The notes beneath the pieces were generated by a model. That model was given only the letters and a program-made list of their open reading frames with translations. It ran no database searches and was not told the DNA's origin. The translations under genes and the position numbers were made by a program. Below are positions 3,010 to 26,131 of a stretch of 64,000 bases of DNA, in pieces (within the stretch, counting starts at the first letter, position 1; the number at the start of each line of letters is the position of its first letter). The stretch is from Candidatus Micrarchaeota archaeon (GTDB lineage: Archaea > Micrarchaeota > Micrarchaeia > Anstonellales > Bilamarchaeaceae), in NCBI GenBank assembly GCA_038046765.1, contig JBBSVN010000005.1:82490-146489 (forward strand), in the 5' to 3' direction.

Positions 3010-3163
3010 GGGCCTGTAGCTCAGTCTGGATCAGAGCGGCACCGTCCTAAGAGTTCTGTGTCATGTGTTTTACGTTTTGTTCGTTATTCGTTCAAGACGC
3101 TAAACTGAAAACACAAAACTCGCATGTAGGTGTAGGCCATGAGTTCAAATCTCATCTGGCTCG
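3010..3163 (+). tRNA. tRNA-Arg(CCT) with 78-nt 37/38 intron (3050..3127)
   Basis: GGGCCTG/CTGGCTC acceptor, D-loop A20, GCACC-GTCCTA|A-GGTGT, ATGAG-TTCAAAT-CTCAT. Relaxed BHB. Confidence 0.85.
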
Positions 3164-3233
3164 TATATTTTTCTTTTTTCTTTTTTTAGTTCTAGCCACA
3201 GCTTTATAATCCTTATTTTCTTTCTTATTAAGC

Positions 3234-3794
3234 ATGACAAAGAAATTCGTTCTTGATACTTCGCTTTTTGTAAACCCTCACGCACGCGGACACTTTGGAA
3301 AAACTCCTGACTTGGCTGTTAAAGGATTCTTGAAAGCTGCAAAGAAGAAGAATGCAGAATTTTACATGCCACCAAGTGTATTTAAGGAATTAAAAAATTT
3401 TCTTAAATCTAAAACTGCCGATGAATTAGAATTGTTTTTGAAGAATAAAGCACCTAATATTTATGCTACTTACTTGCCAGCTGCAGTACTTTATGATTTT
3501 ATCGAAGATATGCGAAATCGACTGAACAAAGGATTAAGATTAGCCGAAGACTATGCTCAAGATAATCACCCAGATAATGCTGCAAAACTTGGGAAATTAA
3601 GGGAAAAATACAGAGAAGCAGTTCGTGCTGGCTTAGTTGATAGCAAGGAAGACTTTGAACTTATTCTCTTATCAAAAGAAATAGATGCTCTTTTAGTTTC
3701 TAGTGATGAAGGCGTAATAAAATTTGCAACTAATATTGGGTGCGAATGTTTGAATGCAAGCAAATTAAGCGCGATGTTAAAGAAGTTAAGATAA
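3234..3794 (+). CDS. RNA-free RNase P (HARP, PIN-domain; MJ0950 RNA ligase partner family)
   Basis: FVLDTSLF, YMPPSV, RNRLNKGLRLAE, LREKYREA-R-G-VDSKED and SSDEG motifs. Confidence 0.9.
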   Translation: MTKKFVLDTSLFVNPHARGHFGKTPDLAVKGFLKAAKKKNAEFYMPPSVFKELKNFLKSKTADELELFLKNKAPNIYATYLPAAVLYDFIEDMRNRLNKGLRLAEDYAQDNHPDNAAKLGKLREKYREAVRAGLVDSKEDFELILLSKEIDALLVSSDEGVIKFATNIGCECLNASKLSAMLKKLR

Positions 3795-3815
3795 AATAAA
3801 CTGTGATTCAAACAT

Positions 3816-4574
3816 ATGTCTAGAAAAACCAAAATCGCACAAAGTTTTGACAAAATCAGCCGAACTTACGAAGATGTTCGGCCTACTTATCCTGATGTTG
3901 TTATCAAAAAGATTCTCTCTTTTTCAAAGATCCCAAAAAATGGTAAAATTGTTGAAGTTGGCTGCGGACCAGGTATAGCTACAATTCCATTTGCAAAAAA
4001 AGGATACAATATCTCTGCCATAGATCCTGGTAAAAATCTCCTTTCTATTGCTAAAGAAAAAACCCGTAAATTTTCAAATGTTTCTTATATTTTAAGTTCA
4101 TTTGAAGATGCTAAACTTCCAATTAATACTTTCGATCTTTTAATTTCTGGTACTGCCTTTCATTGGGTTAATCAGAAAACAGGATATAAAAAAGCTGGCG
4201 AATTGCTAAAGAAAGGCGGAACAATCGCGCTTTTCTGGCTTGCTAATAACTATAAACGAACTGACTTTATTCCTGGTTTATCCGCAGTTTTTAAGAAATA
4301 CTCTAAAAATAAAAAAATCAAGCAAAAACCCTATGAAAAAGAATTTAAACGCATAGCGCGGTCAGGTCTTTTCGGAAAAGTTCACCGGTTCATTTATAAT
4401 CAAAGAATCAAATACTCTAAGGAAGATTACATTAAACTTGTAAGTACTTTTGGCTGGATAAATGTACATCCTAAAAAACCAGAATTTCTTAAAGACCTTA
4501 GTAATTTACTTGGAAAGAGAAAGTATATTTTAGTTCCGTATTCTACTATTCTTTTTATTGCGAGAAGAAAATAA
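3816..4574 (+). CDS. Class I SAM-dependent methyltransferase
   Basis: EVGCGPG motif I, AFHW. Confidence 0.88.
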   Translation: MSRKTKIAQSFDKISRTYEDVRPTYPDVVIKKILSFSKIPKNGKIVEVGCGPGIATIPFAKKGYNISAIDPGKNLLSIAKEKTRKFSNVSYILSSFEDAKLPINTFDLLISGTAFHWVNQKTGYKKAGELLKKGGTIALFWLANNYKRTDFIPGLSAVFKKYSKNKKIKQKPYEKEFKRIARSGLFGKVHRFIYNQRIKYSKEDYIKLVSTFGWINVHPKKPEFLKDLSNLLGKRKYILVPYSTILFIARRK

Positions 4575-4575
4575 A

Positions 4576-5658
4576 TTAATCCTCAATCCCCTTCCCGCTT
4601 AAAGCCTCCTTTATTTTATGGGTGCTTTTCTTGTAGATTTTTCTAAACTTAATTTTTGTTTTTCCATTTTCTGCTTTGGTTCGGCTCACTTCATCAATTT
4701 TTATTTCCTTGCTCATGTGCCTATGGATCCAGTCCCATATTTTTAAGTCTTTAATGATGATTTCATAATCGTCGTAAATTTGTTTGTCGTTTTCGACTTC
4801 CGTTATTGCCTTTGTCAATTTCTCATAAAAAGCTATCCCAAGTTCTTTTGCAAATTTTTCTTTATTTAGTTCAAACTCCCGAATAAATATCGCACTTCTA
4901 AGAACTCTTTGAACATAAAACCCAAGCGGCATATCAAATAAGCTATGCGATGACCCTGCAATATCTTCTATATCTGCAAAAGGATTGACATATTTTACGG
5001 CTTCCTTACGATCTTCGCTCTTAAATATTATCCCCTCCTTTCTCTGTTTCATTATTGATAGTGCGATTTCTCTTATTTTCTTTAAATCAGAAATAGCAAA
5101 CTTGCCAAAACTAGGTGCCTCTTCTATTTTATATTTTTTTAGTAACGATTGCCTTTCTTCCGGAGAAATATAATTGCCGTTTCCAGTATCAACATCAAAA
5201 ACAAATATCTTAACATCAAATCCCTTAGTCGGTCTAGTATATGGGGTGTTTCCAACCATTTCCGCGCATAATACATAATCTGGAAAATCAGAAAAGAATT
5301 TAGGAGTTATTAATTCGCGCGCTTTCTCACTTGCAAAGTAATCAAGGAATCCGCCACGAGAAAATGCGTAAACATTACCATTAATCTTTGCGATTCGAAG
5401 ATTATATCCGTCTATCTTCTCTTCAATGTAAAAATAAGACGCAGTTATGTTCCTTTCTAATCCCTTCTTTAGTGTAAATATCCTTTTAATGTGGGGAAAA
5501 CCAAAAATAATTCGCTCGTTAATAACAATTGTCCCACGTGGAATTCCTCTAAAACCTTCCCGAAAACCAGAATAAATTAGTTCTTCTTTTCGATCAATTA
5601 GTTTGCCTCTTTTACGGGCTTCGGATAGTAATTGATCTGTCATTTCTAGTTTTGGCAT
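4576..5658 (-). CDS. ATP-dependent RNA ligase, Pab1020/Rnl3 family
   Basis: GFPHIKR, EEKIDGYN (motif I), SRGGF, AEMVG, EGIIFK and VKY motifs. Confidence 0.9.
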   Translation of the reverse strand: MPKLEMTDQLLSEARKRGKLIDRKEELIYSGFREGFRGIPRGTIVINERIIFGFPHIKRIFTLKKGLERNITASYFYIEEKIDGYNLRIAKINGNVYAFSRGGFLDYFASEKARELITPKFFSDFPDYVLCAEMVGNTPYTRPTKGFDVKIFVFDVDTGNGNYISPEERQSLLKKYKIEEAPSFGKFAISDLKKIREIALSIMKQRKEGIIFKSEDRKEAVKYVNPFADIEDIAGSSHSLFDMPLGFYVQRVLRSAIFIREFELNKEKFAKELGIAFYEKLTKAITEVENDKQIYDDYEIIIKDLKIWDWIHRHMSKEIKIDEVSRTKAENGKTKIKFRKIYKKSTHKIKEALSGKGIED

Positions 5659-5702
5659 AAAATAAACAAGTAAATGAATATTATAAATATACTCTAAGTA
5701 CG

Positions 5703-7484
5703 CTAAGCCACCTTAGCTTCCTTATTCTCATTAAGCATTTCCTTTACAATTATTGCATAAGCTGGTCTTGATAATAAGAATCCTAAAACAGCTCCTAGAA
5801 TTGTCGACGTAGCAAAACCGATTAATTCAGTTATTCCAGAGAATAATAATGGCATCATCGCAACAATCGCAACAACTATATTTGTTTTAATTATCTCAAA
5901 AGCTGAAGCTATTTTAGATTCAATCGATCCTCCATCTTTTTTCCTTATTTCATCAGTAATTACAATCTGCGCGTCAACACCAACACCAATAGCAGCTATA
6001 ATTCCAGCTACTCCTGCTAAATCGATGTTAAATGGCGAACCTCCTAAAATAGATAATAAAATTATAAGTTCGCTAATACTTACTCCAACTATTGGTAAAA
6101 TCATTTTAAGGCTTCTATACCTAAGCGAAATAAAAATTCCGATTGCGATTAATGAAGCTGCGATACCAAGTATACTTATTTGTAAGAATTCTGCACCTAG
6201 TGTTGCAGGTATTGTTGTTTTACTTCCAAGAGATATTTGAACTGGTAATGAACCTCCTTTTAATATACTTTCAATAAAACGTGCCTGCTCAAGAGCCAGA
6301 TTTGCCTTATTTGTATTTGCACTTAACTGTGTTGTTGGGACGCTTCCGCTGATACCTACTGAATTTCCTGATGGTGGTAATCCCTTTGTTAGTTCTTCTC
6401 CTAAAACTGGCGATGTTAACAACCCTACGGCGGACCATTTTTCTATAGATATGCTTTTATCAATTGGATTATAATTAAACGTCGGTGTTATGTTTTCCTC
6501 TGCAATTTCTTTAACAATAAATCCTTTTTGTTTTAGGTAATCCTTTACTTGTAAGGACGCTTCTGAAGAAATGTATGCTTTTGTTGCGTTGGTTTTTTGA
6601 GTTATATTTGTTTTATTTTGTAAAATTGTTTCTTCAAAATAAAGTTCTATGTTGTCACTATCTGTTTTAAGTGTATTCTTAGCTGCATTTATTGATTCGT
6701 AATCATTTAACTGGCTATTTGTACCCGTTGAAGAAATTGCATTTGCTGCCGCCTCTGCTGCGCTTGTAAGTTTGTCTCTGTTTATAACAATTATTGCATC
6801 TGTTGGTCTATCTAAAAACATGTATACTGGGAATTTTGGTTTATTTTTAGCAGTACTGGCAAATTTCTTTGCGCCTTCGTTGGTCATTGTAAAACCAACT
6901 TCCCAATCTCTGCCGGGGGAACTTCCTGGTACTTTTATCCTGATTGTCTGTGTGTATATATCTTCTGAAGTTAAAGCTGTTTTACCATCTATTACTGCAA
7001 GAAAAACTCCTTGTTGTGAAATCGCTTTTTCTATTGCACTTATTTGTTCATCGTTTGTATTTGCCAGTTCTACGTTTATTTCTGTATCTCCTATTGATTT
7101 GACTTTTACTTCGCTTAATCCAAGAACCGATGCTCTGCTTTTTATCGTGTCTATCATTTTATTCATTGTTTCTGCATCAACTTTCTTTTCCAGTATAATT
7201 GGTATTTTGGTACCACCGCTAAAATCAATTCCAAAATGAAGTCCGTTAAATGCGAGGTTAAACATTGCCAGTAAAACAATCGCAGCCATTCCGAACATTC
7301 GTAGTTTAGTGTCCTTGTAAATTATTGCCATTCCTCCAAAAAGTATGAGTGCCGCAGCAAGTGTCATTCCTGCGAATTTTGAATAACCTGCGATTAAGAA
7401 TATAAATATTAAAAATAATGCCCCTAAGAAAGCCATGCTTCGGTCTAGTTTTAACTGGAATTTTGGTCCTTGTTGTTCGTTCAT
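5703..7484 (-). CDS. secD: Protein translocase subunit SecD
   Basis: GLHFGIDFSGG, LKGGSLPV and GVGVDAQIVITDE motifs. Overlaps secF. Confidence 0.88.
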   Translation of the reverse strand: MNEQQGPKFQLKLDRSMAFLGALFLIFIFLIAGYSKFAGMTLAAALILFGGMAIIYKDTKLRMFGMAAIVLLAMFNLAFNGLHFGIDFSGGTKIPIILEKKVDAETMNKMIDTIKSRASVLGLSEVKVKSIGDTEINVELANTNDEQISAIEKAISQQGVFLAVIDGKTALTSEDIYTQTIRIKVPGSSPGRDWEVGFTMTNEGAKKFASTAKNKPKFPVYMFLDRPTDAIIVINRDKLTSAAEAAANAISSTGTNSQLNDYESINAAKNTLKTDSDNIELYFEETILQNKTNITQKTNATKAYISSEASLQVKDYLKQKGFIVKEIAEENITPTFNYNPIDKSISIEKWSAVGLLTSPVLGEELTKGLPPSGNSVGISGSVPTTQLSANTNKANLALEQARFIESILKGGSLPVQISLGSKTTIPATLGAEFLQISILGIAASLIAIGIFISLRYRSLKMILPIVGVSISELIILLSILGGSPFNIDLAGVAGIIAAIGVGVDAQIVITDEIRKKDGGSIESKIASAFEIIKTNIVVAIVAMMPLLFSGITELIGFATSTILGAVLGFLLSRPAYAIIVKEMLNENKEAKVA

Positions 7485-8572
7485 TTTTCCACCGGAGTTT
7501 TCTTTGGTTCTTTTGATTCCACATACATTAAAAGGATTACCGCGTTAATACCCCACGTAGCAAACAAATCTCCAACTAACCCTACTAATGCAACTGCAGA
7601 TATTTCGTAATATGTTGATATTCTGGTATAAAGCGAAATTATGAAAAGTACTGCAAATGCAATTATTGCAGCGATACTCATTGTTGCTCCTGTCTTAAAC
7701 GCATCAAACGCCTTTTCTCTTGGGTCTCCTTGTCTTTTTAACATACGCATTGTAAGTAAAATGTCTGTGTCTAAAGAGAATCCTGCTAGCATTAATAATG
7801 CAGCTAAGGTTGGAAGAGTAAATGGTATTCCTAATAATCCCATTCCGCCTAGCGCAAAAGTTACATCTGCTGCTGCTCCGATTATTACTGCGAGACTCGG
7901 GACAAATGTCCTAAAGAATATGAATACGAAAATTATGCTTACTATTGCTGAATACAATACTGTCTGTTCTGCTTTTTCTACAAATTTTCCCCGTAATAAT
8001 GGAGAAACTGTATGTACGCTGATTGAAGTGTATTTTACGTATTTTTGTATTGGACCAGATATTGACTGCTGGTAGTTATCATAAACTTTAGTATATGCTG
8101 CACTTACCTGTTTATCGATGCTGTTTAATCCTTCATCTTCTGTTATCGTTTTTTGGATTCTCGCAAGCGTTAACATCTGATTGGCTAGTTTTATCATTTC
8201 TGGTTTATCTGTTGTTGCGTTACTTAAATTACCAAAACTTTCTTTTTGAACCTGTGCATCAAGAAGTTTTGTAAAATTTGTTTTTATGCTTTCAGCATTA
8301 ACTAAGTCCATACTCTGGCCTAATTCTATTTCAACGGCATATCCGGTTGGTAAAGCGTATGTAATAACTGTTCCTTGCAAACCTTCTTTTTCTAAATTTG
8401 CTTGTAACTGCTTAGAGTCAAGGTTTTGGTCTACAGTTAATTTAATTAACGTACCTCCCCGAAAATCAACTCCCGGTTTAATACTTTGCGCAAAGTATAA
8501 ACTTAAGATTAGTAAAATTATTGGTATTATTACCAATAATTTATAGTTGCCCTTGTATATATTAGGAATCAT
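7481..8572 (-). CDS. secF: Protein translocase subunit SecF
   Basis: GVDFRGGT and GFSLDTDILLT motifs. Confidence 0.9.
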   Translation of the reverse strand: MIPNIYKGNYKLLVIIPIILLILSLYFAQSIKPGVDFRGGTLIKLTVDQNLDSKQLQANLEKEGLQGTVITYALPTGYAVEIELGQSMDLVNAESIKTNFTKLLDAQVQKESFGNLSNATTDKPEMIKLANQMLTLARIQKTITEDEGLNSIDKQVSAAYTKVYDNYQQSISGPIQKYVKYTSISVHTVSPLLRGKFVEKAEQTVLYSAIVSIIFVFIFFRTFVPSLAVIIGAAADVTFALGGMGLLGIPFTLPTLAALLMLAGFSLDTDILLTMRMLKRQGDPREKAFDAFKTGATMSIAAIIAFAVLFIISLYTRISTYYEISAVALVGLVGDLFATWGINAVILLMYVESKEPKKTPVEK

Positions 8573-8853
8573 AAAATCAAATACTTCTCTAAGTAGATAT
8601 TTTTGTTGTCAAATAATATAATAGCTATTATTTTTAATTGTTAGGTCTAAATATATTATACTGGCAGGTAGCTAGTGGCTCTTAGCTAGTAGCTTTATAA
8701 TTAAATTGATTTGTTAACCTTATAATAATGGGTTTATAAAAAAATAACGACTGACGCGACCGTTATTTTATACTAAGTGTCGCGTCCTACAAGTCTGTAA
8801 TAAGAAGAGCCTCTTTTTTCTTAGTAAAGAGTATGTAGTAAGTTTATACTAAC

Positions 8854-9055
8854 GCCGGGTTGGCAGATCGGCTATGCCGCCGCCTGCAAACTCCTTTAAT
8901 TGCTTAGGGTCAAACCTAGCTTCTAAAGTTGATGTTTTAAAGGCACTTATGTGATACTTTGTATTACCGTAAGATTCCGCTTTTATGAGGTAAGCGCAAG
9001 TTTACCAATGATATTTAGAAAGCGGCTTAGACAGGTTCAACTCCTGTACCCGGCT
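8854..9055 (+). tRNA. tRNA-Cys(GCA) with ~131-nt 37/38 intron (8890..9020)
   Basis: GCCGGGT/ACCCGGC plus U73, GCCGC-CTGCAA|A-GCGGC, ACAGG-TTCAACT-CCTGT. Confidence 0.9.
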
Positions 9056-9201
9056 TAATTTATTTTTATAATTGATCGTTTAGCGTTTTCAAGTTTCGAG
9101 TTTTGTGTTTAGTATTTTGTTGATTAATCTAGATACCGGGTAGAATTAAAAGCTTTTGCACACTAATTTTAATTATTAACAACTACTTAAGAGCTGATTT
9201 T

Positions 9202-9977
9202 ATGTCAAGAAAATTACGCGTAGCGATATTAGGATGCGAACCAAAAGAGCAACTCTACTTCCTCATAGGGGAAAACAATGTTTTTCAATGGCGATTCTAG
9301 CAGATAACCTTAGCGAAATGTCTTCTAAAGTTGGTTTTAAAATTCAGCCAACAATTTACTGGGTCGCAAACGGAGCACAATTTCCTAGAATAATTTCAAA
9401 TACATTTGATGCAGTTGTAACTACGGGTTCACAGTTAAACTTAGATAAAGAAAGCATACCTCTAAATCCATGGTATCAAAACCTCTTTGAGTTTATTCGT
9501 TCAGTAAGGCATCAAAGAATTCCAATGCTCGGAATATGTTTTGGACATCAGGCAATTGCAGCCGCATTTGGAGTTGAAGTAATTACCAATCCGATTAAAC
9601 CACAAACAGAAATCGGCTTTGCACCAGTTACTTTGACTATAGAAGGAAGAGGAAGCGGATTACTCTCTGGTCTGCCAAGAGATCATTTTGATGCGCTTTT
9701 CTCACATTCTTATTGTATTACAACTGTTCCACACGGAGCACAAACTTTAGCCATAGGACATGGCAAAATGATTCATGCTTTTAGTTTAGATCTTTTGTAT
9801 GGAGTTCAGTTCCATCCGGAAATTTCACCTGATGTCATAAAACATATTGCAGAATTGCGGGCAGAAAAACTTGCGAAACAGGGAATAAAACGAGTAAAAA
9901 CTGAAATCGAAAGAAGAGTAGATCATACTGTTCTAGAAAACTTTGTTAAGATGGCTGCGAGAATGCGGGAATTATAA
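9202..9977 (+). CDS. Type 1 glutamine amidotransferase (apparent -1 frameshift near the N-terminus)
   Basis: GICFGHQ and QFHPE triad in ORF 9234..9977. GATase-like first strand MSRKLRVAILGCEP lies in another frame from ATG 9202. Confidence 0.8.
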
Positions 9978-9981
9978 TTTT

Positions 9982-10608
9982 TCATTTCTTCCAAACCCAA
10001 AAGTGTCCTTTGTGATGCAAACGTTTTCCTAAGGTAGTTTCGCTATAATGTAGTAACTTTAAGTTCGCGTAGTTCGTTTCTATTTCTTCTTTATTTCGAT
10101 AATACATAATATTTCCAAACTTTCCAGTTGCACTAGATTTGCTCTGTGAATGTTCGTCCTTATCAGAATAGCAAACGAGTGCAAGAATTCCGTCCTTATC
10201 TAAAAGAGAAATTTCTTTTTTTGTGTAATGTAAAATATCATCTGGAGTAATATGGTGCATAATTGAATAATCAAAAATAAAATCAAACTTCTTTTCTTCA
10301 AACGAATATTCTAAGAAATCTCCAGTAATAAAATTTATTTTTACTTCCGCAACCTTCGCTTTCTCTTTTGCAATTTTAATTGCTTTTTCTGAAATATCTA
10401 TCGCAGTAACATCAAAACCAAGCTTTGCTAAATAAATAGAATAATTACCTGAACCGCATGCAATATCCAAAATTCGCGAACCGGTTACAAACTTATTTTT
10501 TAAAATAAAATCTAATTCTACGGGGTGTTTTTCTATTTCCCAAGGAATATCTTCAAGTTTTTTAGAATACATTTTTTGCCAATAATCTGCTTTATCTGCA
10601 TTAACCAT
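9982..10608 (-). CDS. Class I SAM-dependent methyltransferase
   Basis: LDIACGSG, AIDIS and FDFIFD motifs. Confidence 0.88.
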   Translation of the reverse strand: MVNADKADYWQKMYSKKLEDIPWEIEKHPVELDFILKNKFVTGSRILDIACGSGNYSIYLAKLGFDVTAIDISEKAIKIAKEKAKVAEVKINFITGDFLEYSFEEKKFDFIFDYSIMHHITPDDILHYTKKEISLLDKDGILALVCYSDKDEHSQSKSSATGKFGNIMYYRNKEEIETNYANLKLLHYSETTLGKRLHHKGHFWVWKK

Positions 10609-10661
10609 AAATAATAATTAAATACTAACGTTTATTAAGAAGTTCCGTTATATACTATATT

Positions 10662-10976
10662 ATGTCAAGAAGAAGTCTAAACAAGGAATTAGCAAGCGAA
10701 AAAGTGGAAATACATTTTTATCTGGTTAGTATAAAAGATGGACAAAAAATCTTAAAACCCCTTAAATTTACAACAAAAATTTCACTAGGTTTAGTTCGAG
10801 CGATATCAGCAGATACTGTAATTCCTACTTTTTATGATACACTATCAGATAATCTAAGAGAGCGTGGCGTAAAGGATGGTTCAACCGTTCAATTACGTGC
10901 AAAGTTTAGTCCAGGGCACGAAATGTTTGACCCATCTTTAAAAGGAACAAAAGTAATCTGCGAAGCTAAAGTTTAA
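10662..10976 (+). CDS. Hypothetical protein
   Basis: 104-aa ORF filling the gap between genes. Confidence 0.55.
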   Translation: MSRRSLNKELASEKVEIHFYLVSIKDGQKILKPLKFTTKISLGLVRAISADTVIPTFYDTLSDNLRERGVKDGSTVQLRAKFSPGHEMFDPSLKGTKVICEAKV

Positions 10977-10977
10977 T

Positions 10978-11631
10978 TTATTCTTTTTCTATAATTTGAA
11001 TTAATTGAGCTATTCCTAAATTTGTTGGAGCGTGCAGTCTTATTGTCTCTCTTAACATGCTGGTAATATCCGAAGTCGGAGATCCGAATTGACTAGGTTC
11101 ATCTATTGCTAACATTCCTAAAACATGTAAAACTGATCCTTCTAAATCTGCAATTATTCTTCCTTCAACTACTGCTTCAGTACATAAATAATTTAACATT
11201 CTTCTTACATACATTTCAGAAAGCACAGTCATCCCATTTGCGCTAATATGCGGTTGTTCGATCTGTAGTTTGGCAGAATAAATTCCATTTCCTGCATCTT
11301 CTGCATATTCGTGTGTATGCTCGTATTGGGCAAATGCCCGGACGTAGTTGTATACTAAGTGCCATTTTGCAAAAGAAAAAGGCACGGTTAGTGAAAGTTC
11401 TGCAGTTATTTCTGTTATGTCTTCTTGTGCAGATTTTCCTTCAATGTAGACATCTAGAATTATTTTGGCACTTCCAAAACCATTTAGTTTGTTACTATTA
11501 ATTAAAATTATGCCTTCACTTGTTTCTTCTTTTCTAAACCCTTTTTGTAATAATCCTTTCTCGAAAGTTGCGAGTGCTTCTTTTGGCAATCTCATTTTTT
11601 TCCTATCTGTCGTTGATTGATTTATAATCAT
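10978..11631 (-). CDS. Hypothetical protein
   Basis: 217-aa ORF with GGTGA SD. Confidence 0.65.
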   Translation of the reverse strand: MIINQSTTDRKKMRLPKEALATFEKGLLQKGFRKEETSEGIILINSNKLNGFGSAKIILDVYIEGKSAQEDITEITAELSLTVPFSFAKWHLVYNYVRAFAQYEHTHEYAEDAGNGIYSAKLQIEQPHISANGMTVLSEMYVRRMLNYLCTEAVVEGRIIADLEGSVLHVLGMLAIDEPSQFGSPTSDITSMLRETIRLHAPTNLGIAQLIQIIEKE

Positions 11632-11648
11632 AATAATTCACCTTCAAT

Positions 11649-12302: not shown

Positions 12303-12410
12303 AAACTAATTACAATTTCTAAATTTTAAAAATGTTTCTACAGTTTGAAACACTTTTCTAAACATTTAAAAATCGTATTAGGCATTAAATATTCCTGTTA
12401 TGGTGAACAA

Positions 12411-16274: not shown

Positions 16275-16526
16275 TTTATCACCTAAAATTATAAAATTAC
16301 TTATCGAATTACTTATTTATTTTAATAATACGTTAAGTAGTACTTAAATACAGTAAACTTTTGTTTTACAGTAAACATATATTTCTCTATTTAGTATTTA
16401 AATAAGTTTCGGTTTTATCCGTTTCTTACACTCTTTATAAACTTAACTACTTTACTTGTTTACTATTATCTACTGTATGCCCATCTATTTTTAATCCAAG
16501 CCTAAGGCAGACTTTAGCAATAATTC

Positions 16527-17159: not shown

Positions 17160-17401
17160 AATCCATCCTTGTTACAGTAAATCGCAAAATAAATAAAAAT
17201 CAATCGCTTTCGAAATTCGCTTTTAAGAAAATCAAAAACAAACAAACAAAAATCTGAGGAAGAAAATTAGAAACTTTAACGTTTTATCGTCCCGAGGCGC
17301 CCGGGTTATAAACGAGGTTATGGTTTACGATGTTACTATCAAACTGCTTAGTATTAAAATATTTGCTCGTTGTTATCTATATTATCTTTCTAGTTGATTT
17401 T

Positions 17402-18226
17402 ATGGATTATACCTATTATGTTGTTCTAGTGGCAATAGCCGCAATTTTGTATTCGCTGCTTTTGCGTTTTATCAATGATAAATTTGGTAACAAACAAGAA
17501 ATGCAAAAATTCCAAGAAGAATCTAAGCGGTTAAGTGATGAATATTCTAAGGCTTCCAAGGCAAATGACAAAATAAAAATGGATCAGGTAATGAAAGAGC
17601 AGATGGAAACTTTGCCTAAAATGAATGGTATGATGCTTAATCAGTTTAAGCTCATGATTCCGATTCTTATTGTATTTTTTGTTTTTACGTGGAGCATAAA
17701 TAATTTTGATCCAACTTTGAAAAATCATTTTACAGTTTCATTAAATGATCTTGCAAAAGATTGTGATAAGATTGCAAACGATGGTGTCTTTACTGGTTGT
17801 ACTTACCTAAATAGTTCCAATATCGACACTACCTGGGCCGTAATTGCAAAAGGATACGATTCATCTGGAGGTGAAATATCCGAAAATTTTACTTTATTTT
17901 CTTATGGGCAGGCACCATTTGATCAAAACGCTTACTATAAACAACAAAAAGGTACTCTTTCAATTTCTGTTGATAAGAAAATCTATTCTCCTAAAGACAA
18001 GATAACTATTCAGGCAAGTGGTAATGGTCTATATAAAGCAGACGCTATTTTGAATAATGGGGAAAGTTTTTATGTCGATTTGCCATTTACGATTCCATTT
18101 TTAAATGTTAAAAGAATTCACGAACCCTACTGGTGGTTCCTCTTTTTAACTGTTATAATCGGGCTGTTGCTTTCAATTGTTCAGGGTTTAATGACTAAAA
18201 AACCAGTAGTTAAGCAGTTAAGTTAA
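17402..18226 (+). CDS. DUF106/EMC3/TMCO1 (Oxa1 superfamily) membrane protein
   Basis: TM, coiled coil, Met-rich QFKLM segment, terminal YWWF. Sits in the usual position before rpl34e-cmk-rpl14e-cbf5. Confidence 0.8.
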   Translation: MDYTYYVVLVAIAAILYSLLLRFINDKFGNKQEMQKFQEESKRLSDEYSKASKANDKIKMDQVMKEQMETLPKMNGMMLNQFKLMIPILIVFFVFTWSINNFDPTLKNHFTVSLNDLAKDCDKIANDGVFTGCTYLNSSNIDTTWAVIAKGYDSSGGEISENFTLFSYGQAPFDQNAYYKQQKGTLSISVDKKIYSPKDKITIQASGNGLYKADAILNNGESFYVDLPFTIPFLNVKRIHEPYWWFLFLTVIIGLLLSIVQGLMTKKPVVKQLS

Positions 18227-18346
18227 ACTTAAAAACTGTTCAATTAACATTATTAATAACAATCCTAGTAATAATTATAATGTTTATAACTAAAATAATG
18301 ATTTAATGATTATAACTAAAAGTTATATCTAAAAGGTGTATTATAT

Positions 18347-18586
18347 ATGAAAAACGGTAAATGTGCTATTTGTCAAGCAATGATAAAAGGATTAGAATCA
18401 TCAGGAGCAAAATCAAAGAAAACTATTTCGCGTACATTCGGTGCAAATTTATGTACTGGTTGTAGCAGGTTTGCACATGTTGAAGCGACAAGGGTAAAAA
18501 ATAAATCGAAAAACATGGAATCGGTTGATTTCTCTTATAGAAAATACGTACAAAACATTATAGATTCTAAAAAATTCGCGCAATAG
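18347..18586 (+). CDS. rpl34e: 50S ribosomal protein eL34 (short form)
   Basis: KCAIC...SKKTISRTFGANLCTGC zinc motif; synteny. Confidence 0.82.
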   Translation: MKNGKCAICQAMIKGLESSGAKSKKTISRTFGANLCTGCSRFAHVEATRVKNKSKNMESVDFSYRKYVQNIIDSKKFAQ

Positions 18587-18596
18587 GTGCTAGGTT

Positions 18597-19121
18597 TTGA
18601 TAATTGCCATAGCTGGGTTAACTGGTAGCGGTAAAAATACGGTAGGTGAATTCCTTGCCAAAGAGCTTGGAGTTCGCATGGTCTGCCCCACTATGAAGGA
18701 TCTGGCTAAAAAAGAAGGCGTATCGCTTATTGAATTTCAAAAAATGGCCCAGAAGGATCCGAATATTGATTTGAAATTTGACCTTCTTCTTAAAGAAGAG
18801 TGTGCAAAAGGCGATGCGGTAGTTACAACCTGGCTTGGTGCATGGATAACTAAACCAGATGTTGCGATCTTTCTTAATGCGTCAGATAATACCCGAGCCG
18901 CACGTATCGTGGGAAGAGATAAAATGTCGCTTGCAATCGCGCTTAAGCATGTTCAGGAACGCGATTCACAAAATATAAAGAGATATAAAAAGTTGTATTC
19001 CATTGATATTACAGATACATCTATTTTTGATGTTGTAATCAATAGCGATAAATTCACACAGGCGCAGGTAAATGAACTTGCTCTTGCATGTGTAAAAATA
19101 AAGCTTAATAAAAAATCTTAA
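18597..19121 (+). CDS. cmk: Cytidylate kinase (archaeal)
   Basis: GLTGSGKNT P-loop and RYKKLYSID. Confidence 0.9.
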   Translation: MIIAIAGLTGSGKNTVGEFLAKELGVRMVCPTMKDLAKKEGVSLIEFQKMAQKDPNIDLKFDLLLKEECAKGDAVVTTWLGAWITKPDVAIFLNASDNTRAARIVGRDKMSLAIALKHVQERDSQNIKRYKKLYSIDITDTSIFDVVINSDKFTQAQVNELALACVKIKLNKKS

Positions 19122-19204
19122 TAAATAATCGAAAAATAAATCTTAATAAAAAATTTTAATTAAAAATTAGTATTTGAAAATTTCAAATTAAAGGTGAAAT
19201 TATT

Positions 19205-19375
19205 ATGGCAGCAATAAATGTAGGAAGCGTTTGCGTAATCATCGCAGGAAGAAGATCTGGAGAACAAGTAACTATTAGCAGTATTGCTGATTCAAATTGC
19301 GTTCTAACTAAGGACAAAAAAGGAAAAGAAAGAAAATATTCGGTATTACACCTTGAACCCGTTTCAAGAAACTAG
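19205..19375 (+). CDS. rpl14e: 50S ribosomal protein eL14 (56 aa, not in ORF track)
   Basis: MAAINVGSVCVIIAGRRSG...HLEP; GGTGA SD; synteny. Confidence 0.9.
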   Translation: MAAINVGSVCVIIAGRRSGEQVTISSIADSNCVLTKDKKGKERKYSVLHLEPVSRN

Positions 19376-19378
19376 ATC

Positions 19379-20257
19379 TTGGATATGGCAATTAAGGATT
19401 TGCTAAATAATTCTGTTGTTATTCTAAACAAACCCCCTAAACTTAGCTCGCATGAAGTTAGTGTAATTACTAAACAAATTCTTGGGGTTTCTAAAAGCGG
19501 GCATGCTGGAACTTTGGATCCGCAAGTTAGCGGGGTCTTAATTGTAGCTTTAGGCAGGGCTACAAAACTTTTACAGTTTATAACTAAAGCTGATAAAACT
19601 TATGTTTGCATTATTAAATTCAAGAATATTCTTGCTAAAACGGAAATTCTATCTCTTTTTGAAAAGTTTACTGGAACTATTACCCAGACTCCTCCTAAGG
19701 AATCTGCAGTAAGAAAAGTTGCTCGCAAGCGTCACGTATTTTATATTAAATTTTTAGAACAAAGCAAAGAAAATCCAAGGCTGGTTCTTTTTGAAACAAA
19801 AGTTGAAGCTGGTACATACATTCGAACACTCTGTGATGACATTGGAAAAATTTGCGGTGGTGCAAGGATGGAAGAATTACGCAGAGTAAAATCTGGTTCT
19901 GTTGGTGAGACTAAGGCTATAACTTTGCAACAACTCAAACATATTTATCAAATGTATTTGCAGACTCAGGAAGACAAACAACTTTTAAAAGTTATAAAAC
20001 CACCAGAATTTTACATTGATTTTCCAAAAGTTATGATTAAAAATTCCGCTTTAAAAAGTATTTCAAATGGAGCGCAAATAATGTTTCCCGCAATTAAAGA
20101 CGCGCAAATGGGAGTTAAGAAAAATAATCTTGTTTATTTATGCGATGAGCAAAGCAAGTTTTTTGGTGTTGGTACTTCTCTTTTTGACTATGCCGAACTA
20201 CCAAAAAAACAAGGTATAAAAGGACTTGCAGTAAATTTAGAGAGGGTTCATATATGA
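19379..20257 (+). CDS. cbf5: Pseudouridine synthase Cbf5/TruB
   Basis: SSHEV, GHAGTLDP, GTYIR and PUA domain. Confidence 0.93.
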   Translation: MDMAIKDLLNNSVVILNKPPKLSSHEVSVITKQILGVSKSGHAGTLDPQVSGVLIVALGRATKLLQFITKADKTYVCIIKFKNILAKTEILSLFEKFTGTITQTPPKESAVRKVARKRHVFYIKFLEQSKENPRLVLFETKVEAGTYIRTLCDDIGKICGGARMEELRRVKSGSVGETKAITLQQLKHIYQMYLQTQEDKQLLKVIKPPEFYIDFPKVMIKNSALKSISNGAQIMFPAIKDAQMGVKKNNLVYLCDEQSKFFGVGTSLFDYAELPKKQGIKGLAVNLERVHI

Positions 20258-21864
20258 AATCTAGCGATTTTTTTATAAGATGCCTTGAAAACGAAGATGT
20301 CAAATATATATTTGGTCTTCCAGGAGAAGAAGTTGAAGATGTTTTGTTTTCAATAAAAAGCTCCAACATTGAATTTGTATTAACACGCCATGAGCAAGGA
20401 GCTGCTTTTATGGCTGACTTATATGGTCGTCTTACGGGTAAAGCTGGTGTGTGCTTATCTACACTAGGCCCTGGTGCGACTAATCTAATTACAGGGGTAG
20501 CTGATGCGAATTTAGATCATGCGCCATTAGTTGCGATTACCGGACAAGGTAGTGTAAACCGATTGCATAAAGAATCGCACCAGATTATCGACATTGTTGA
20601 AATGTTCAAGCCAGTTACAAAATGGAACACACGAATAACTAGCGGGCAGGTTGTTGGTGAAATAGTTCGTAAGGCTTTTAAAATTGCGCAAATGGAAAAG
20701 CCAGGAGCTACGCATATCGAAATTTCAGAGGACATTGCAGCCTCGCAAATTCCGGACAAAGAACCTATTTCAAAAACCACGCTTAGAAGACCTTATCCAG
20801 ATCATAAGGCATTATCCGATGCGGTTACACTCATAAATCAGTGCTCTAATCCAGTAATTTTAGCTGGTAATGGCGCAATTCGAAAACTTGCTTCAAAACA
20901 ATTATCTATGCTTGTAGAAAAAACAGGCATTCCTGTAATTTCAACTTTCATGGGAAAAGGCGCAGTATCCGACCTAAGTGCTCATTCGCTTTTTGCATTT
21001 GGGTTAGGTACAAAAAAATACGTTGCTGATATTTTTGCTCAAAGCGATTTAGTTATTTGTGTTGGGTATGATGTTGCAGAACTAGATCCCTCTAAGTGGA
21101 ATCCTAAAAAAGATAAAAAGATAATTCACATTGATTTTACGCCTAGCGAAGTTTATGAAAATTATATTCCTAATGCTGAAATTGTCGCAGATATTTCGAA
21201 CACTCTCTGGGCGCTTAATACTCAGATTATTAGAAATTTTGAGTCTGTTGTTGCAAAGAAAATTCGGGCGAATATTTTATCTGATCAGGCCGTTTCTTCA
21301 AAATCCAACTTATTTCCAATAAGTCCGCAGAAACTTATTAGCGACCTGCGTTCTGTCTTAAAGGAAGATGATATTGTTATTTCCGATGTTGGCGCGCATA
21401 AAATGTGGATTGGAGCTAACTATCCAACATATAAGCCCAATACTGTTATTGTCTCAAATGGTTTTGCTTCAATGGGCATCGCACTTCCAGGTGCAATCGG
21501 AGCAAAACTAGCTAAACCTGATAAAACTGTTGTCGCAGTAACAGGAGATGGTGGATTTATCATGAACTGCCAGGAATTAGAAACAGCTAAACGGCTTAAA
21601 ATTCCTTTTGTTTGCGTTGTTTTAAACGATACTAAATATTCGTTAATTGAAGCTAAACAAGTAAGAAATAAGGGAGAAGGATTTGCGATTGATTTTGAAA
21701 ATGTTGATATAAGTTTACTTGCAAAAAGTTTTGGGGTTAAATCGATAAAAATTGATAAAACGAACGAACTAAAAGACGCGCTTAAGCAGGCAATCGATAT
21801 GAATACTGTTTGCTTAGTCGATGTCCCAACTGATGCGAAGGAGAATTTGAAGTTGTTTGAATGA
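20254..21864 (+). CDS. Acetolactate synthase large subunit-like TPP enzyme
   Basis: FGLPGEE, TRHEQGA, GPGATN and GDGG motifs. Confidence 0.9.
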   Translation: MKSSDFFIRCLENEDVKYIFGLPGEEVEDVLFSIKSSNIEFVLTRHEQGAAFMADLYGRLTGKAGVCLSTLGPGATNLITGVADANLDHAPLVAITGQGSVNRLHKESHQIIDIVEMFKPVTKWNTRITSGQVVGEIVRKAFKIAQMEKPGATHIEISEDIAASQIPDKEPISKTTLRRPYPDHKALSDAVTLINQCSNPVILAGNGAIRKLASKQLSMLVEKTGIPVISTFMGKGAVSDLSAHSLFAFGLGTKKYVADIFAQSDLVICVGYDVAELDPSKWNPKKDKKIIHIDFTPSEVYENYIPNAEIVADISNTLWALNTQIIRNFESVVAKKIRANILSDQAVSSKSNLFPISPQKLISDLRSVLKEDDIVISDVGAHKMWIGANYPTYKPNTVIVSNGFASMGIALPGAIGAKLAKPDKTVVAVTGDGGFIMNCQELETAKRLKIPFVCVVLNDTKYSLIEAKQVRNKGEGFAIDFENVDISLLAKSFGVKSIKIDKTNELKDALKQAIDMNTVCLVDVPTDAKENLKLFE

Positions 21865-21877
21865 TTAAAAAATCGAA

Positions 21878-22969
21878 TTAGCGATTAAATATCCTAGATA
21901 AGAAATTAGGAACTTCTTTTATAAGCTCAAATAAAGAAGCCGTTGCAACACCTGCTAAAACAGCCGTAAACCAGTAAACTAACTGCAATTTCCTATTTTT
22001 ATTATCTATTAGTTCTTGATTTTCTGAATTTAATTTAAATACAAAAGATTTTTCGTGATCGGGGTCTTGAGCGTATACATTGTAAAAGTTTAGTCCATTA
22101 TCTGAATAAGAATCAAAACGTAAAATGTTTAAGGGGCGGTTCGGATCCCCTAGTTCTGGCACAAAACAACTAAATCTAGAATTGCAATTGTATTTGTTTG
22201 TTGCTACGATAAAATTAAAGTTGTATAATTCTTTTACAGCATCTAATCTAATAATAAATTTGCCGTTTGGAGTTATACTTGTTCTAGTCTGAATCAAAAG
22301 AGTTTTTCCTTCTAATGCTCGTTTAGGACACATTGTTTCAAATTCGACAGACTTATTTGTGATACACTCATTTATTTTCGTATAAACATTATTTTTGTTT
22401 ACATCACTTTCAATTAAGAATGCATTTTCTACTATGCTGTTGATATCCTTAGAATTAATTTTAATCGTACCAGTTGAGTTAATTAAATCTGTTATTGTTA
22501 TATTTGTAATATTATCTTCAGGGTATGTAGAAAAAGTTAAATTATTTATATAAAATTCATCACTTCCATTCGTTTTAGGGTATATTGAAATGTCATAAAA
22601 AGTATCCTTATAATCATCAGTTAATTTCATCTTTTCAATAGCAGAAAGTTCCCCAAACTGATTTAATATCACAAATAAAGATATAGTAAAAATAATGCAT
22701 AATATTCCAGTCCATAAAATTCCCTTATGTATGCTACCTTTTCCAGAATTATTTGCTTTGCTGTTATTTTGCTGATTTTCATCTGGTTTAAAATAATAAT
22801 TATGAAATCTACCTGTTTTTTCATAATAAATTTTATTATTTAAAACTAACTCATTCAGGGTCTTTTCTATTTTTTCTGGAGATACCTCCAAACTATTTGC
22901 TATCTGATTACGACTAACTAGTGGTTTTTGATTTTTCAACAAATTTAGTATTTTATCTTCTAATTCCAC
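21878..22969 (-). CDS. Hypothetical HTH-containing membrane protein
   Basis: N-terminal wHTH-like segment, two TM helices. Confidence 0.6.
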   Translation of the reverse strand: MELEDKILNLLKNQKPLVSRNQIANSLEVSPEKIEKTLNELVLNNKIYYEKTGRFHNYYFKPDENQQNNSKANNSGKGSIHKGILWTGILCIIFTISLFVILNQFGELSAIEKMKLTDDYKDTFYDISIYPKTNGSDEFYINNLTFSTYPEDNITNITITDLINSTGTIKINSKDINSIVENAFLIESDVNKNNVYTKINECITNKSVEFETMCPKRALEGKTLLIQTRTSITPNGKFIIRLDAVKELYNFNFIVATNKYNCNSRFSCFVPELGDPNRPLNILRFDSYSDNGLNFYNVYAQDPDHEKSFVFKLNSENQELIDNKNRKLQLVYWFTAVLAGVATASLFELIKEVPNFLSRIFNR

Positions 22970-23081
22970 ATTATCCCTTTCTATTTTTCTTACTTTGATA
23001 ATGTCTTATTGAATATAAAAATCTGTCCTTTGCATTGTTGTCAACCCTAACCTTAATTAATCTAATATTCTAGTTTAATCT

Positions 23082-24053
23082 ATGCAACTAAAAAATCCCC
23101 TTCTGCTTTACCGTGGAGAAGAATTTAATGCTAATTTTTACTATCAAACAGGAGTAGATATTGACCATAGTTTTTTCTTACTTGATGGTAAGACAAAAAT
23201 ACTTCTAACTCCTAAGATGAACTATGAATTTGCTAAGAAAACCTTTAAAGGCAAAGTAATTATTTATTCAAACCCCATAAAAGAAATAATAGAACTAATA
23301 AAATCAAAATCACTCTGCTTAGATTTCTCATCCTTATCTGCTTCACTATTTATTAAACTCCAAGAAAATTTCAAACTTGAAAACGTAAGCGAAGAGCTTC
23401 TAAAAGAGCGGATGGTTAAGCGAGCGGATGAAGTAGCTAAAACAAAAAAAGCAGTACATGCCACCAAAGAAATTCTAAATTCAATCGACTTCTCAAAACA
23501 TAAAATCGAACTAGATATTAAAAAATTCTTACTAAAAGAAACGCTTGAGCAAGGTTTTGAACAAGCATTTAACCCGATTGTTGCGACTGATAAAAACAGT
23601 TCTTTTCCTCATTACACTCCAGCGAATGTCAAACTCGGTTCAATTATTCTAATTGATTACGGGGTTAAATACGAAAAATATTGCGCTGACCTAACCAGGT
23701 GTTTTTTCCTTGGTAATGGTAAAAAAACAAAAGAAGCCAAGGCTAATTATGAAAAACTTCAAGAAATTCTTCATGATCTAGTTGATAATCTTTCGAATTT
23801 CAAAGATGGCACAGGTTTAGCTAAGGCAAGTGAATCTTTATTTGAAAAATACAAATTCCCGAAACTAATTCATAGTATCGGTCATGGTGTTGGTTTAGAT
23901 GTTCATGAGTTTCCAAGGCTAAGCGAAAAGTTTAATGATAATTTAACTAATTCCATTCTCGCAATCGAGCCAGCAGTTTATTTTAAGGGTAAGTACGGTC
24001 TTCGCTTCGAAGAAACTATTTATTTTGATGGTAAAAAAGCTAAGATTTTGTAA
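23082..24053 (+). CDS. Xaa-Pro peptidase (M24)
   Basis: PH, ID-G, ADLTR, HSIGHGVGLDVHE, IEP and RFEE motifs. Confidence 0.9.
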   Translation: MQLKNPLLLYRGEEFNANFYYQTGVDIDHSFFLLDGKTKILLTPKMNYEFAKKTFKGKVIIYSNPIKEIIELIKSKSLCLDFSSLSASLFIKLQENFKLENVSEELLKERMVKRADEVAKTKKAVHATKEILNSIDFSKHKIELDIKKFLLKETLEQGFEQAFNPIVATDKNSSFPHYTPANVKLGSIILIDYGVKYEKYCADLTRCFFLGNGKKTKEAKANYEKLQEILHDLVDNLSNFKDGTGLAKASESLFEKYKFPKLIHSIGHGVGLDVHEFPRLSEKFNDNLTNSILAIEPAVYFKGKYGLRFEETIYFDGKKAKIL

Positions 24054-24109
24054 ATATTTTTAAGTCGGTTTTACTTAGATATTTAAAATGAATTTACTTA
24101 GTCTTAGTT

Positions 24110-25954
24110 ATGCCTAATTCTTTACATTCTAACCATTCCAGTTCTTCCACTAAAATTGCTTCAAGAACTTATTTTCAGTCTATTGGATATGTCGAACAAC
24201 GCATTACTATTAGTGATAAGTATGGTACCGAAAGAACTCTTTATGGGTGGGTTCCAAAAGGCATAAGCCAAACTGAAGCTATAAAACGAGTAATCGAACA
24301 AAACGGTGGAATGTGCGAAATAAAACGAGGAGGTTATGATCCAATTAATCGAATCGATCTATCTAACTTTACATACATTACCAAAATTGCCTTTGATGAT
24401 GGTTTTACTGTTGCTGACTGGTTACAAATTAGAAATCAATATAATGAATTTGCTATTGGTCAAATAGGTAATACTACTTTCTGGGAAAATGGAGATACTT
24501 TAAGAGCTCATGGAAATAATCAAATTCGTATTACTGAAGATTATGGATTTACAAAAGAATTGCCAGACACATCTGATTTAATCGGCCGTAAAAAAAGAGG
24601 TACATGTGGTGGCTGTGGTGGACCAATTACAAACGAAGCACTTAGCGCATTAGATCTAGCGAGTAAATATGCTCAAAAAAGGGATACTTATAATTTTGAC
24701 CCAAATACTGGCGCAATAAGGCTCGTTAGAAATTCTCAAACATCGGAAAATGAAACTGGTTTTCGCCATATTCTTAACGATTTTTTTAATCAAGTAAAAA
24801 CTTATTTTAACGATACACCTAGTAGCGTTAATTTATCTGCTAGTTCTTACATGATCCAGTTATCGACCAATTCTCAGTTTACCTATCTTGGCGCTGGCGA
24901 TTTTGATTCTTCATCTGCTTTTGCAATAACTCCCCATGCGTCAACTGTTCATAAAAAATTAGCTTCTACTTATTATGCAACTATTAATGGAAATGACACT
25001 TCATCTACTACCTATAACGGCGAAAATACGCTCGCTTCTAACATAGCATTAACTCAAAATACTACTTATAATGAAAAATCAGTTATCTCACCCGTTTCTG
25101 ATAACTCGTTTATCTTTTCTTCATTTGTTTCTAAATGTTCTTGTTGTACAATTAATTTAACTTTAGATTATTTATCTACAAAAACAAAAATTTCTCAAGG
25201 GTTAAATACCGTTGCGGTTTTAGCATCTATTCGTAAAGAAGTTGTAAATTCACCTAAAAACGCATTATCTCAAATTTCCTTAGTTCCGTTGCCAAGAATA
25301 GATTCATTTATTCTATCTAAACCAAATGACCGAGTCTGTAGAGTAAAACCAGTCCTTGTTATTTCTTCTCAAAAAAGAACTGCAAATGATAATTCAACTA
25401 CTTCAAAATCCGCTTCTAAAGAAATTCCAAAGATAAAAACTAAACAAATAGAAAAACCAACAACAAAACCAAAACAAGTTACAAAGGAAACTGCCGTTCA
25501 AATCGTTAAACCGAAACTAATTTCTGTTGATAAATTAAATAAATCTAAAGTACTTGCAGGTAGGAACAAACAAATACCTAGAAAAGTTCTACCTTCAATA
25601 GCATACTTAAAACCCAATAGTAAACTAGTAAAATCAAATTTAAATTCAAATAAGGTGAAACTTGAAAACGAAAATATTCAAAATATTAAAACAAAAGCTA
25701 AGCCTCGAGCGAGCGCTGTAAAACAAAAAATTCCTTCGATTAATTTACAAGAATCAATTCGTGCTACTAGAAAATCTACGCAAGCTAAAGTTTCAAAAAT
25801 TAATATTGCACCAAAGAAAGAATTAGACACAGATATGTTTGCCCCAGTTTTAGCTAAACAAATTGCATCAATGAACAAATCTTATCTAATCAAATGGATC
25901 GCAAACGAACGAAGTAAAAGAAATAAAACTAGCTCTAGACGGAAAGCTGCTTAA
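24110..25954 (+). CDS. Hypothetical protein with Ser/Thr-rich middle and Lys-rich tail
   Basis: 614-aa ORF. Confidence 0.6.
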   Translation: MPNSLHSNHSSSSTKIASRTYFQSIGYVEQRITISDKYGTERTLYGWVPKGISQTEAIKRVIEQNGGMCEIKRGGYDPINRIDLSNFTYITKIAFDDGFTVADWLQIRNQYNEFAIGQIGNTTFWENGDTLRAHGNNQIRITEDYGFTKELPDTSDLIGRKKRGTCGGCGGPITNEALSALDLASKYAQKRDTYNFDPNTGAIRLVRNSQTSENETGFRHILNDFFNQVKTYFNDTPSSVNLSASSYMIQLSTNSQFTYLGAGDFDSSSAFAITPHASTVHKKLASTYYATINGNDTSSTTYNGENTLASNIALTQNTTYNEKSVISPVSDNSFIFSSFVSKCSCCTINLTLDYLSTKTKISQGLNTVAVLASIRKEVVNSPKNALSQISLVPLPRIDSFILSKPNDRVCRVKPVLVISSQKRTANDNSTTSKSASKEIPKIKTKQIEKPTTKPKQVTKETAVQIVKPKLISVDKLNKSKVLAGRNKQIPRKVLPSIAYLKPNSKLVKSNLNSNKVKLENENIQNIKTKAKPRASAVKQKIPSINLQESIRATRKSTQAKVSKINIAPKKELDTDMFAPVLAKQIASMNKSYLIKWIANERSKRNKTSSRRKAA

Positions 25955-25976
25955 CTAATATACTAAAATAAAAATA

Positions 25977-26131
25977 TGGCGGGCTCAGAGGGAAATTCCG
26001 AGTTTTGTGTTTTCAGTTTAGCGTCTTGAACGAATAACGAACAAAACGTAAAACACATGACACAGAACTCTTTTGAACCCTCGGCGGACGGATTAAGAGT
26101 CCGTTACTCTACCAAGCTGAGCTATGAGCCC
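25977..26131 (-). tRNA. tRNA-Lys(CTT) with 78-nt T-loop 59/60 intron (25994..26071); CCA encoded
   Basis: GGGCTCA/TGAGCCC, ACGGA-CTCTTAA-TCCGT, GAGGG-TTCAAA|T-CCCTC. Confidence 0.92.

Follow-up and report, generated by a model that had tools for sequence, protein, structure and literature searches.

A heptamer hairpin very recently copied between introns of two different tRNA genes of a Micrarchaeota archaeon

The stretch of DNA analyzed here (the window; 64,000 nucleotides (nt), GenBank assembly GCA_038046765.1, contig JBBSVN010000005.1, positions 82,490 to 146,489) comes from a Candidatus Micrarchaeota archaeon of the Bilamarchaeaceae and carries two tRNA genes that are interrupted by almost the same intron. 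The gene for tRNA-Arg(CCT) lies on the plus strand at 3010-3163 (exons 3010-3049 and 3128-3163), with a 78-nt intron at site 37/38 (3050-3127), while the gene for tRNA-Lys(CTT) lies on the minus strand at 25980-26131 (exons 26131-26072 and 25993-25980), with a 78-nt intron at site 59/60 in the T-loop (25994-26071). Both introns have the same 71-nt hairpin body with four heptamers in each arm (3051-3121, plus strand; 26000-26070, minus strand), followed by a 6-nt tail. The Arg tail (3122-3127, plus strand) comprises the 3' strand of the central helix of the splice motif and two bulge bases; the Lys tail occupies 25994-25999 on the minus strand, and the last 12 nt of the Lys intron are the same as the end of a T-loop intron in tRNA-Lys(TTT) of a relative (G064; G numbers other than G000, the genome under study, denote genomes of relatives, C numbers contigs of G000 and L numbers extracted loci). 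The Lys gene is followed by an encoded 3' CCA (25977-25979, minus strand), which is rare in the lineage. Excision of the introns yields a 76-nt tRNA-Arg with anticodon CCT and a 74-nt tRNA-Lys with anticodon CTT, in agreement with their orthologs; ARAGORN misses both genes and, when long introns are allowed, makes mostly false calls.

Alignment of the two introns gave identity at 75 of 78 nt (96%), without any difference in the first 73 nt, from which a divergence below about 4% is estimated; the only differences are at bases 74, 76 and 77. The exact tract measures 74 nt because it includes the last exon base (3049-3122 and 25999-26072), so that identity ends one base into the 5' exons and the exons were not copied along with the intron. 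The local alignment score of the pair was 146, compared to a best score of 24-30 for shuffled introns, and a genome-wide search found these two full copies and no third in the 1.52-Mb genome. The original prediction, which was made from the letters of the window alone, had proposed a very recent intron jump between unrelated tRNAs at two positions without an encoded homing nuclease, and it was right about the identity from the first base, the recent copying and the missing nuclease: the 78 nt contain no open reading frame (ORF), and no LAGLIDADG_1 match was obtained in the genome, which is 90% complete. An Rfam search with the intron was without a match, and neither intron is flanked by a target-site duplication, the junction flanks being different. 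The precedent that it had named is likewise found in passages of PMC4090602. Sharing of intron families by different tRNAs in Thermoproteales has been described as "large-scale tRNA intron transposition" (Fujishima et al., 2010, as reported in passages of PMC4090602, PMC4033280, PMC4390854 and bioRxiv 10.64898/2026.10.13.758758), and with 96% identity at sites 37/38 and 59/60 our pair lies within the range applied there (at least 80% identity, different amino acids and different positions). The case works like intron sharing in Thermoproteales, and it is real and very recent.

A duplicate of this kind could in principle be produced by misjoining of a collapsed repeat, a check that had been named together with the prediction. 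The 74-nt tract exceeds the word size of the assembly graph, so that the contigs of run X1, which is possibly the source of the assembly, do break there. However, the 74-nt contig of X1 had a depth of 26.3, compared to 10.2-11.5 in its four flanking contigs, and had two entries and two exits, as two true copies would give. In addition, an independent contig from another study (X5) covers the Arg locus from 2999 to 3155 without a difference, and both joined forms yield correct tRNAs, which makes an assembly artefact extremely improbable. The phasing of the Lys locus is based on the X1 contigs together with the tRNA fold. Neither intron-less alleles nor spliced joints were seen in four runs, which carries no weight given the low-depth contigs, and a contig of the single RNA run ends at 3042 on the Arg locus.

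[quoted passage not shown] Three of the four pairs of the central helix can form in each case (G.U, U-A, a C.C mismatch and C-G for Arg; U-A, U-A, C-G and an A.G mismatch for Lys), which makes the motifs relaxed ones. In a census of the genome with our own script, which is probably incomplete, 38 of 44 tRNA genes were interrupted by a total of 64 introns (25 in the T-loop, 20 at the anticodon and 19 in the D-loop); of the 59 central helices that remained after exclusion of five introns with doubtful boundaries, 37 were full, 19 had three pairs and three had two. The genome has genes for a full-length EndA of the epsilon2 type (E 2.4e-129 to PDB 4FZ2) and for an RtcB ligase; this endonuclease type by itself would suggest a probable Micrarchaeota-type host. 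Enzymes of the epsilon2 type cut at 59/60 and at relaxed motifs in vitro, according to passages of PMC3239211, and by analogy the host EndA would be able to cut the motifs described here. Both inserts can be regarded, from sequence and fold, as ordinary relaxed-BHB tRNA introns with predicted splicing. In addition to the epsilon2 enzyme, a second EndA-family gene, encoding 175 amino acids, is present (G000:C10:76880-77122). Additional BHB motifs nested inside the hairpin were considered as well, and a by-eye check of the units found none.

The three differences between the introns bear on how the second copy came about. The original prediction had assumed a jump in which the exon-pairing ends were adapted to the new target; recent copying is supported, but a simple adaptation of the ends to each host is not. 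A compensatory change is seen at base 76 only; base 77 lies at a bulge position without an effect on pairing, and the C at base 74 in Arg mismatches C34, where the G of the Lys intron would pair. A pairing G at this position is present in 28 of 39 orthologous Arg introns, if the register is assumed to be the same. Moreover, the Lys tail can pair with the Arg exon unchanged at three of four positions, while the Arg tail pairs with the Lys exon at one of four. Location of all three differences in the last 5 of 78 nt has a probability of 1.3e-4 under random change. Since the differences are confined to this end, and selection accounts for one of them while the other two give no gain in pairing, later tuning of copied tails is improbable; most simply, the body alone would have been copied and the tails would already have been resident. 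Base 73, a G that pairs in Arg and not in Lys, was tried as an indicator of the direction of copying and rejected, as T-loop family members in G064 and G019 end alike.

The intron body has a period of 7 nt, with four degenerate units in each of two complementary arms around a loop. This periodicity was reached by none of 2000 shuffled sequences for the whole intron and by 45 and 13 for the two arms, and the fold z-score of the hairpin was -3.65. An unbiased period-7 scan of the genome yielded 59 non-coding arrays of several types. With patterns that were written after these arrays had been seen, the intron type gave 13 non-coding matches, nine of them in tRNA genes, two within 200 nt of one and two elsewhere, compared to 48 non-coding matches and none in tRNAs for another heptamer type. 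Of the 98 other family genomes, 47 had matches to a covariance model built from six introns, with up to 39 rows each when both strands are counted. Among 46 high-scoring non-training matches examined out of about 470 rows, 38 were tRNA introns (11 in the D-loop, 13 in the anticodon arm, one of these at a contig edge, and 14 in the T-loop), one was in a 16S rRNA gene and seven were elsewhere, at least three of which adjoin stop codons; these classes were assigned by eye, and a model trained on introns is biased to introns. A loose BHB score of 9 was reached by 21 of 37 tRNA cases, by 5 of 37 antisense controls and by none of the seven outside cases. Over 66 aligned matches, 14 of 21 arm pairs had double changes, a level that none of 500 shuffles attained, in an alignment that is fitted to the model and contains some rows from the opposite strand of the same hairpin. 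In summary, the sequence comparisons identify the intron as one member of a heptamer-hairpin repeat family. The covariation would also fit selection on a functional excised RNA that keeps the two copies identical, but the median identity of family members is only 54%, their loops vary freely and the pairs next to Arg/Lys (96%) reach 84%, so that structure is kept and sequence is not, and we consider such selection very unlikely as the cause of the identity.

Diverged members of the family reside in the same genome, in tRNA-Arg(TCT) (71-74% identical to the pair) and tRNA-Trp (65-68%). Within the window, the tRNA-Ser(CGA) gene just upstream of tRNA-Arg (2764-2954, plus strand) has introns at 37/38 (2803-2855) and 58/59 (2887-2939), the second of which has the same heptamer type, and a lone 5'-arm array of the intron type is found just behind tRNA-Cys(GCA) (9085-9129, plus strand). 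Further lone 5'-arm arrays lie behind tRNA-Val and tRNA-Phe genes (G000:C5:24755 and C5:35648), a heptamer arm is located inside or beside an RNA that resembles the signal recognition particle RNA and scores below the Rfam cut-off (L077:177-401, G000:C2), and another occurs in a GC-rich non-coding stretch (L076). A model match in frame in the leucyl-tRNA synthetase gene (E 1e-5) was rejected, as the protein is without an insertion there. A scan of genome contigs with a degenerate arm pattern allows no distribution to be derived, since 67 of the 80 loci examined among the matches listed were pure microsatellite; the listed matches also contained an archaeal T-loop member (L190) and a bracketed gene for a four-helix-bundle protein (L229). 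Neither the family nor the encoded CCA nor the tRNA-Ser(CGA) gene had been mentioned in the prediction, and a literature search that reached few subscription journals found no published report of a heptamer hairpin as an archaeal tRNA intron.

Copying among such repeats extends beyond the pair. An intergenic hairpin of another heptamer type (45031-45086, plus strand) has an exact 56-nt copy at G000:C4:18200-18255, whose end lies some 20 nt in front of the gene for the epsilon2 EndA, and because this copy is intergenic, copying needs no splicing. Partners in a tRNA for another amino acid were found for 17 of the 64 introns at 70% identity, for four at 80% and for two at 90%, and shuffled sequences gave none. 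The introns of tRNA-Ser(CGA) and tRNA-Leu(TAG) are chimeric, with a common tail (33 of 35 nt) and different front halves. The chimeras and the intergenic copy, as far as sequences can tell, point to splicing-independent recombination among repeats. The 59/60 introns of tRNA-Leu(TAA) (G000:C5:125171) and tRNA-Ser(GGA) (C2:9714) are 88% identical; passages of PMC4390854 state that no translocatable intron is known in class II tRNAs. Several other modular intron families (for example Arg TCG, Arg GCG, Leu TAG, Leu CAA and Ile TAT) recur across the family of genomes in reshuffled form.

The history of the two sites was followed in orthologs parsed from part of the matches, 46 for Arg(CCT) and 47 for Lys(CTT), with six and five more left unparsed; the nearest of the 98 genomes has 55-58% identity in one marker protein. 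An anticodon-loop intron is present in 39 of the 46 Arg(CCT) orthologs and absent from site 37/38 in G001, one of the four nearest relatives. A T-loop insert was found in 12 of the 47 Lys(CTT) orthologs (one a 5-nt mis-parse), and the four best-scoring relatives all have Lys(CTT) T-loop introns, each of a different sequence. Intron positions thus appear to recur while their sequences turn over. At Arg(CCT) 37/38, a family member is present in G065 and half a hairpin in G004, while none was seen in the Lys(CTT) T-loop among the parsed orthologs and matches. A jump into an empty site, as originally proposed, is therefore not shown, given that most Arg(CCT) orthologs and the four best-scoring Lys(CTT) relatives hold other introns.

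On the basis of these comparisons, our preferred explanation, to which we give about an even chance, is that the hairpin body was swapped into the resident splice frame of the other gene. The hairpin would be a small repeat element that is copied between loci in this lineage, and the body of one intron would very recently have overwritten that of the other by recombination, presumably ectopic gene conversion from DNA or cDNA, while the exon-pairing 6-nt tail of each gene stayed in place. A swap is favored because both sites are often occupied in relatives and diverged members exist as conversion partners. Transfer from Arg to Lys would be the likelier direction, because family members are known at Arg(CCT) 37/38 and not in the Lys(CTT) T-loop and because the Lys gene has a new CCA. 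Several observations weigh against this explanation. Ordinary conversion would need an older family member at Lys(CTT) 59/60 to land on, yet none was found, and the introns that the nearest relatives have at this site are unrelated. No sister genome with the earlier state was found, and neither the two metagenome scans nor the viral scan gave a match. Family members in T-loops typically have a tail like that of Lys, which also pairs at three of four positions with the Arg exon, and transfer from Lys to Arg or from a lost third donor is possible. Finally, the family occupies many different positions, and therefore true insertions must also happen.

Such an insertion, a de novo gain of the hairpin in which seven flanking bases (one at the 5' and six at the 3' side) were made or selected so that a BHB forms, is a possible though clearly less probable origin. 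Family members in D-loop, anticodon and T-loop sites and in the 16S gene of relatives speak for it, as do the 35 of 47 parsed Lys(CTT) orthologs without a T-loop intron, the N-U-C-N-N-A at both targets with a Lys tail that can pair at three of four positions with either, and the Thermoproteales precedent (passages of PMC4090602). However, if the whole intron was copied, three changes must have fallen within 5 nt, one of them removing a pair, and none within the other 73, the junctions are without target-site duplication, and neither a Y1 transposase nor a LAGLIDADG_1 gene was found in the 90% complete genome. The swap of the body, including its RNA-templated form discussed below, is thus the better reading compared to a clean jump.

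The encoded CCA suggests how a swap into the Lys gene might have been templated. It occurs in two of the 44 tRNA genes of the genome, Lys(CTT) and Asp(GTC) (G000:C6:101995; one of 14 Asp orthologs is likewise equipped), in none of the 47 Lys(CTT) and 46 Arg(CCT) orthologs and in one of the 175 tRNA-like genes that 269 loci of relatives yielded, a set that overlaps the orthologs. The usual T-rich trailer follows the CCA of tRNA-Lys(CTT). Since a newly encoded CCA is what reverse transcription of a tRNA should leave behind (passages of bioRxiv 10.64898/2026.10.13.758758), it provides a post-hoc hint that the Lys gene was rewritten from RNA. A reverse transcriptase (RT) could have been primed at the CCA of an intron-bearing pre-tRNA-Lys, copied the 3' exon and the tail first, and then changed template, taking the body from the excised Arg intron, after which the cDNA would have recombined into the Lys gene; this route would be the cDNA branch of the body swap. 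The rarity of CCA in the genome and the orthologs despite its presence in this gene, the presence of two RT genes and the predominance of T-loop introns (25 of 64) are in line with it. On the other hand, the CCA is one post-hoc case, CTA, a single substitution from CCA, follows two of the 47 Lys orthologs, none of the 47 genes of relatives that have a T-loop intron carries CCA, and the exact intergenic 56-nt copy requires no tRNA. Both RT genes, which resemble those of diversity-generating retroelements (DGRs), are broken by a shift between two reading frames, which in each follows immediately on an (AG)n run, at a matching position and with a matching offset (L298:1866-1911 and L299:1821-1926; C4), possibly a programmed frameshift or a phase switch. 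DGR enzymes mutate adenines, but all 20 adenines of the tract are unchanged although the RTs look DGR-like. Templating by RNA is therefore regarded as rather unlikely.

The source of the hairpin was also considered, with ORF-bearing intervening sequences and PF05635 genes as the known system for comparison. Both genes for PF05635 four-helix-bundle proteins in the genome are bracketed by heptamer arrays of the other type, not of the intron type. In G005, by contrast, a PF05635 gene lies between inverted intron-type arms at the 3' end of tRNA-Arg(CCT) (L368:1375-1917), where 38 nt comprising the tRNA end and the arm are present as a direct repeat. Intron-type arms on both sides of such a gene were found at one of 28 family loci and at one of the 80 loci examined among the listed matches of the genome scan. 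PF05635 and the hairpin co-occur in 18 of 28 versus 29 of 70 genomes (p 0.047, with kin that are not independent), and a PF05635 match is absent from nine of 16 genomes with at least 12 hairpin matches. A four-helix-bundle cassette as the parent of the hairpin is thus a lead only. It has a low probability that the gene-less hairpin, possibly shed by such cassettes at tRNA 3' ends, is an intron source that moves via reverse-transcribed CCA-ended pre-tRNA, in which case Lys(CTT) would be a fresh product with the CCA as scar and an unmutated body. Most PF05635 genes of the family (L353-L377) differ from the heptamer-bracketed ones in being preceded by another conserved structured leader together with a short ORF.

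Comparison with known systems places the pair between several of them. Unlike the introns shared in Thermoproteales, those described here belong to another lineage, are longer and consist of a recognizable repeat with further copies outside tRNAs; four of 64 introns are shared at 80% identity or more, compared to 28.3% in Thermoproteales and 1.5% in Asgard archaea, obtained with a different procedure (passages of bioRxiv 10.64898/2026.10.13.758758). Primary work on Thermoproteales may already describe unshared ends. The 59/60 introns of ARMAN-2 are similar in enzyme type, in the use of sites 37/38 and 59/60 and in relaxed motifs, which were cut in vitro there, but they measure 13 and 25 nt, are without a sequence family reported in the passages available, and 56% of genes are interrupted compared to 38 of 44 here (PMC3239211). 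Likewise, the P6b stem of the group I intron in Nostoc tRNA-Leu(UAA) contains a class II heptamer stem-loop (NNTGAGT) for which whole-hairpin replacement was proposed, and thus represents a 7-nt-unit hairpin with a similar unit in a tRNA intron; it is, however, a dispensable ribozyme stem, while here nearly the whole of a protein-spliced intron is formed by the hairpin, and the likeness concerns a low-complexity unit (passages of PMC4476775). A mobile-element route for introns has been proposed (passages of PMC3293823). With regard to small mobile repeats, MITEs (miniature inverted-repeat transposable elements) and repetitive extragenic palindromes and their paired form (REP/REPIN) are short, non-coding, palindromic, dispersed and copied. 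The hairpin family shares these properties, yet differs in the lack of target duplication, the low identity among copies and the strong preference for tRNA loops. The only transposase family searched, Y1_Tnp, which is the partner of REP elements (RAYT), gave no match in the 90% complete genome, and a GxxExxY-type nuclease gave one match below the cut-off.

In the neighborhood of the Arg locus, a PIN_5 "RNA ligase partner" gene (3234-3794, plus strand) and a Pab1020-type RNA ligase gene (4576-5658, minus strand) lie directly behind tRNA-Ser and tRNA-Arg; we take the former to encode a protein-only RNase P and the latter an RNA-circularizing enzyme. Other interrupted genes in the window are tRNA-Gly(TCC) (359-451), with a 22-nt D-loop intron, and tRNA-Cys(GCA) (8854-9055), with a 131-nt intron at 37/38.

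In Asgard archaea, copying, mobile elements and reverse transcription were tested without a general route being found, and the arrival of introns was called the central open problem, according to passages of a preprint of October 2026 (bioRxiv 10.64898/2026.10.13.758758). While shared introns as such are already known from Thermoproteales, no heptamer-hairpin unit of this kind was found in print. The unit that moves can be given a name and looked for in other genomes. In the youngest pair the boundaries are sharp, with the body copied and the tails not, and one partner carries a rare CCA. Each route of arrival predicts different sister alleles, and if only conversion acts, identical introns alone would not prove transposition. 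The pair therefore opens the arrival of archaeal tRNA introns to testing.

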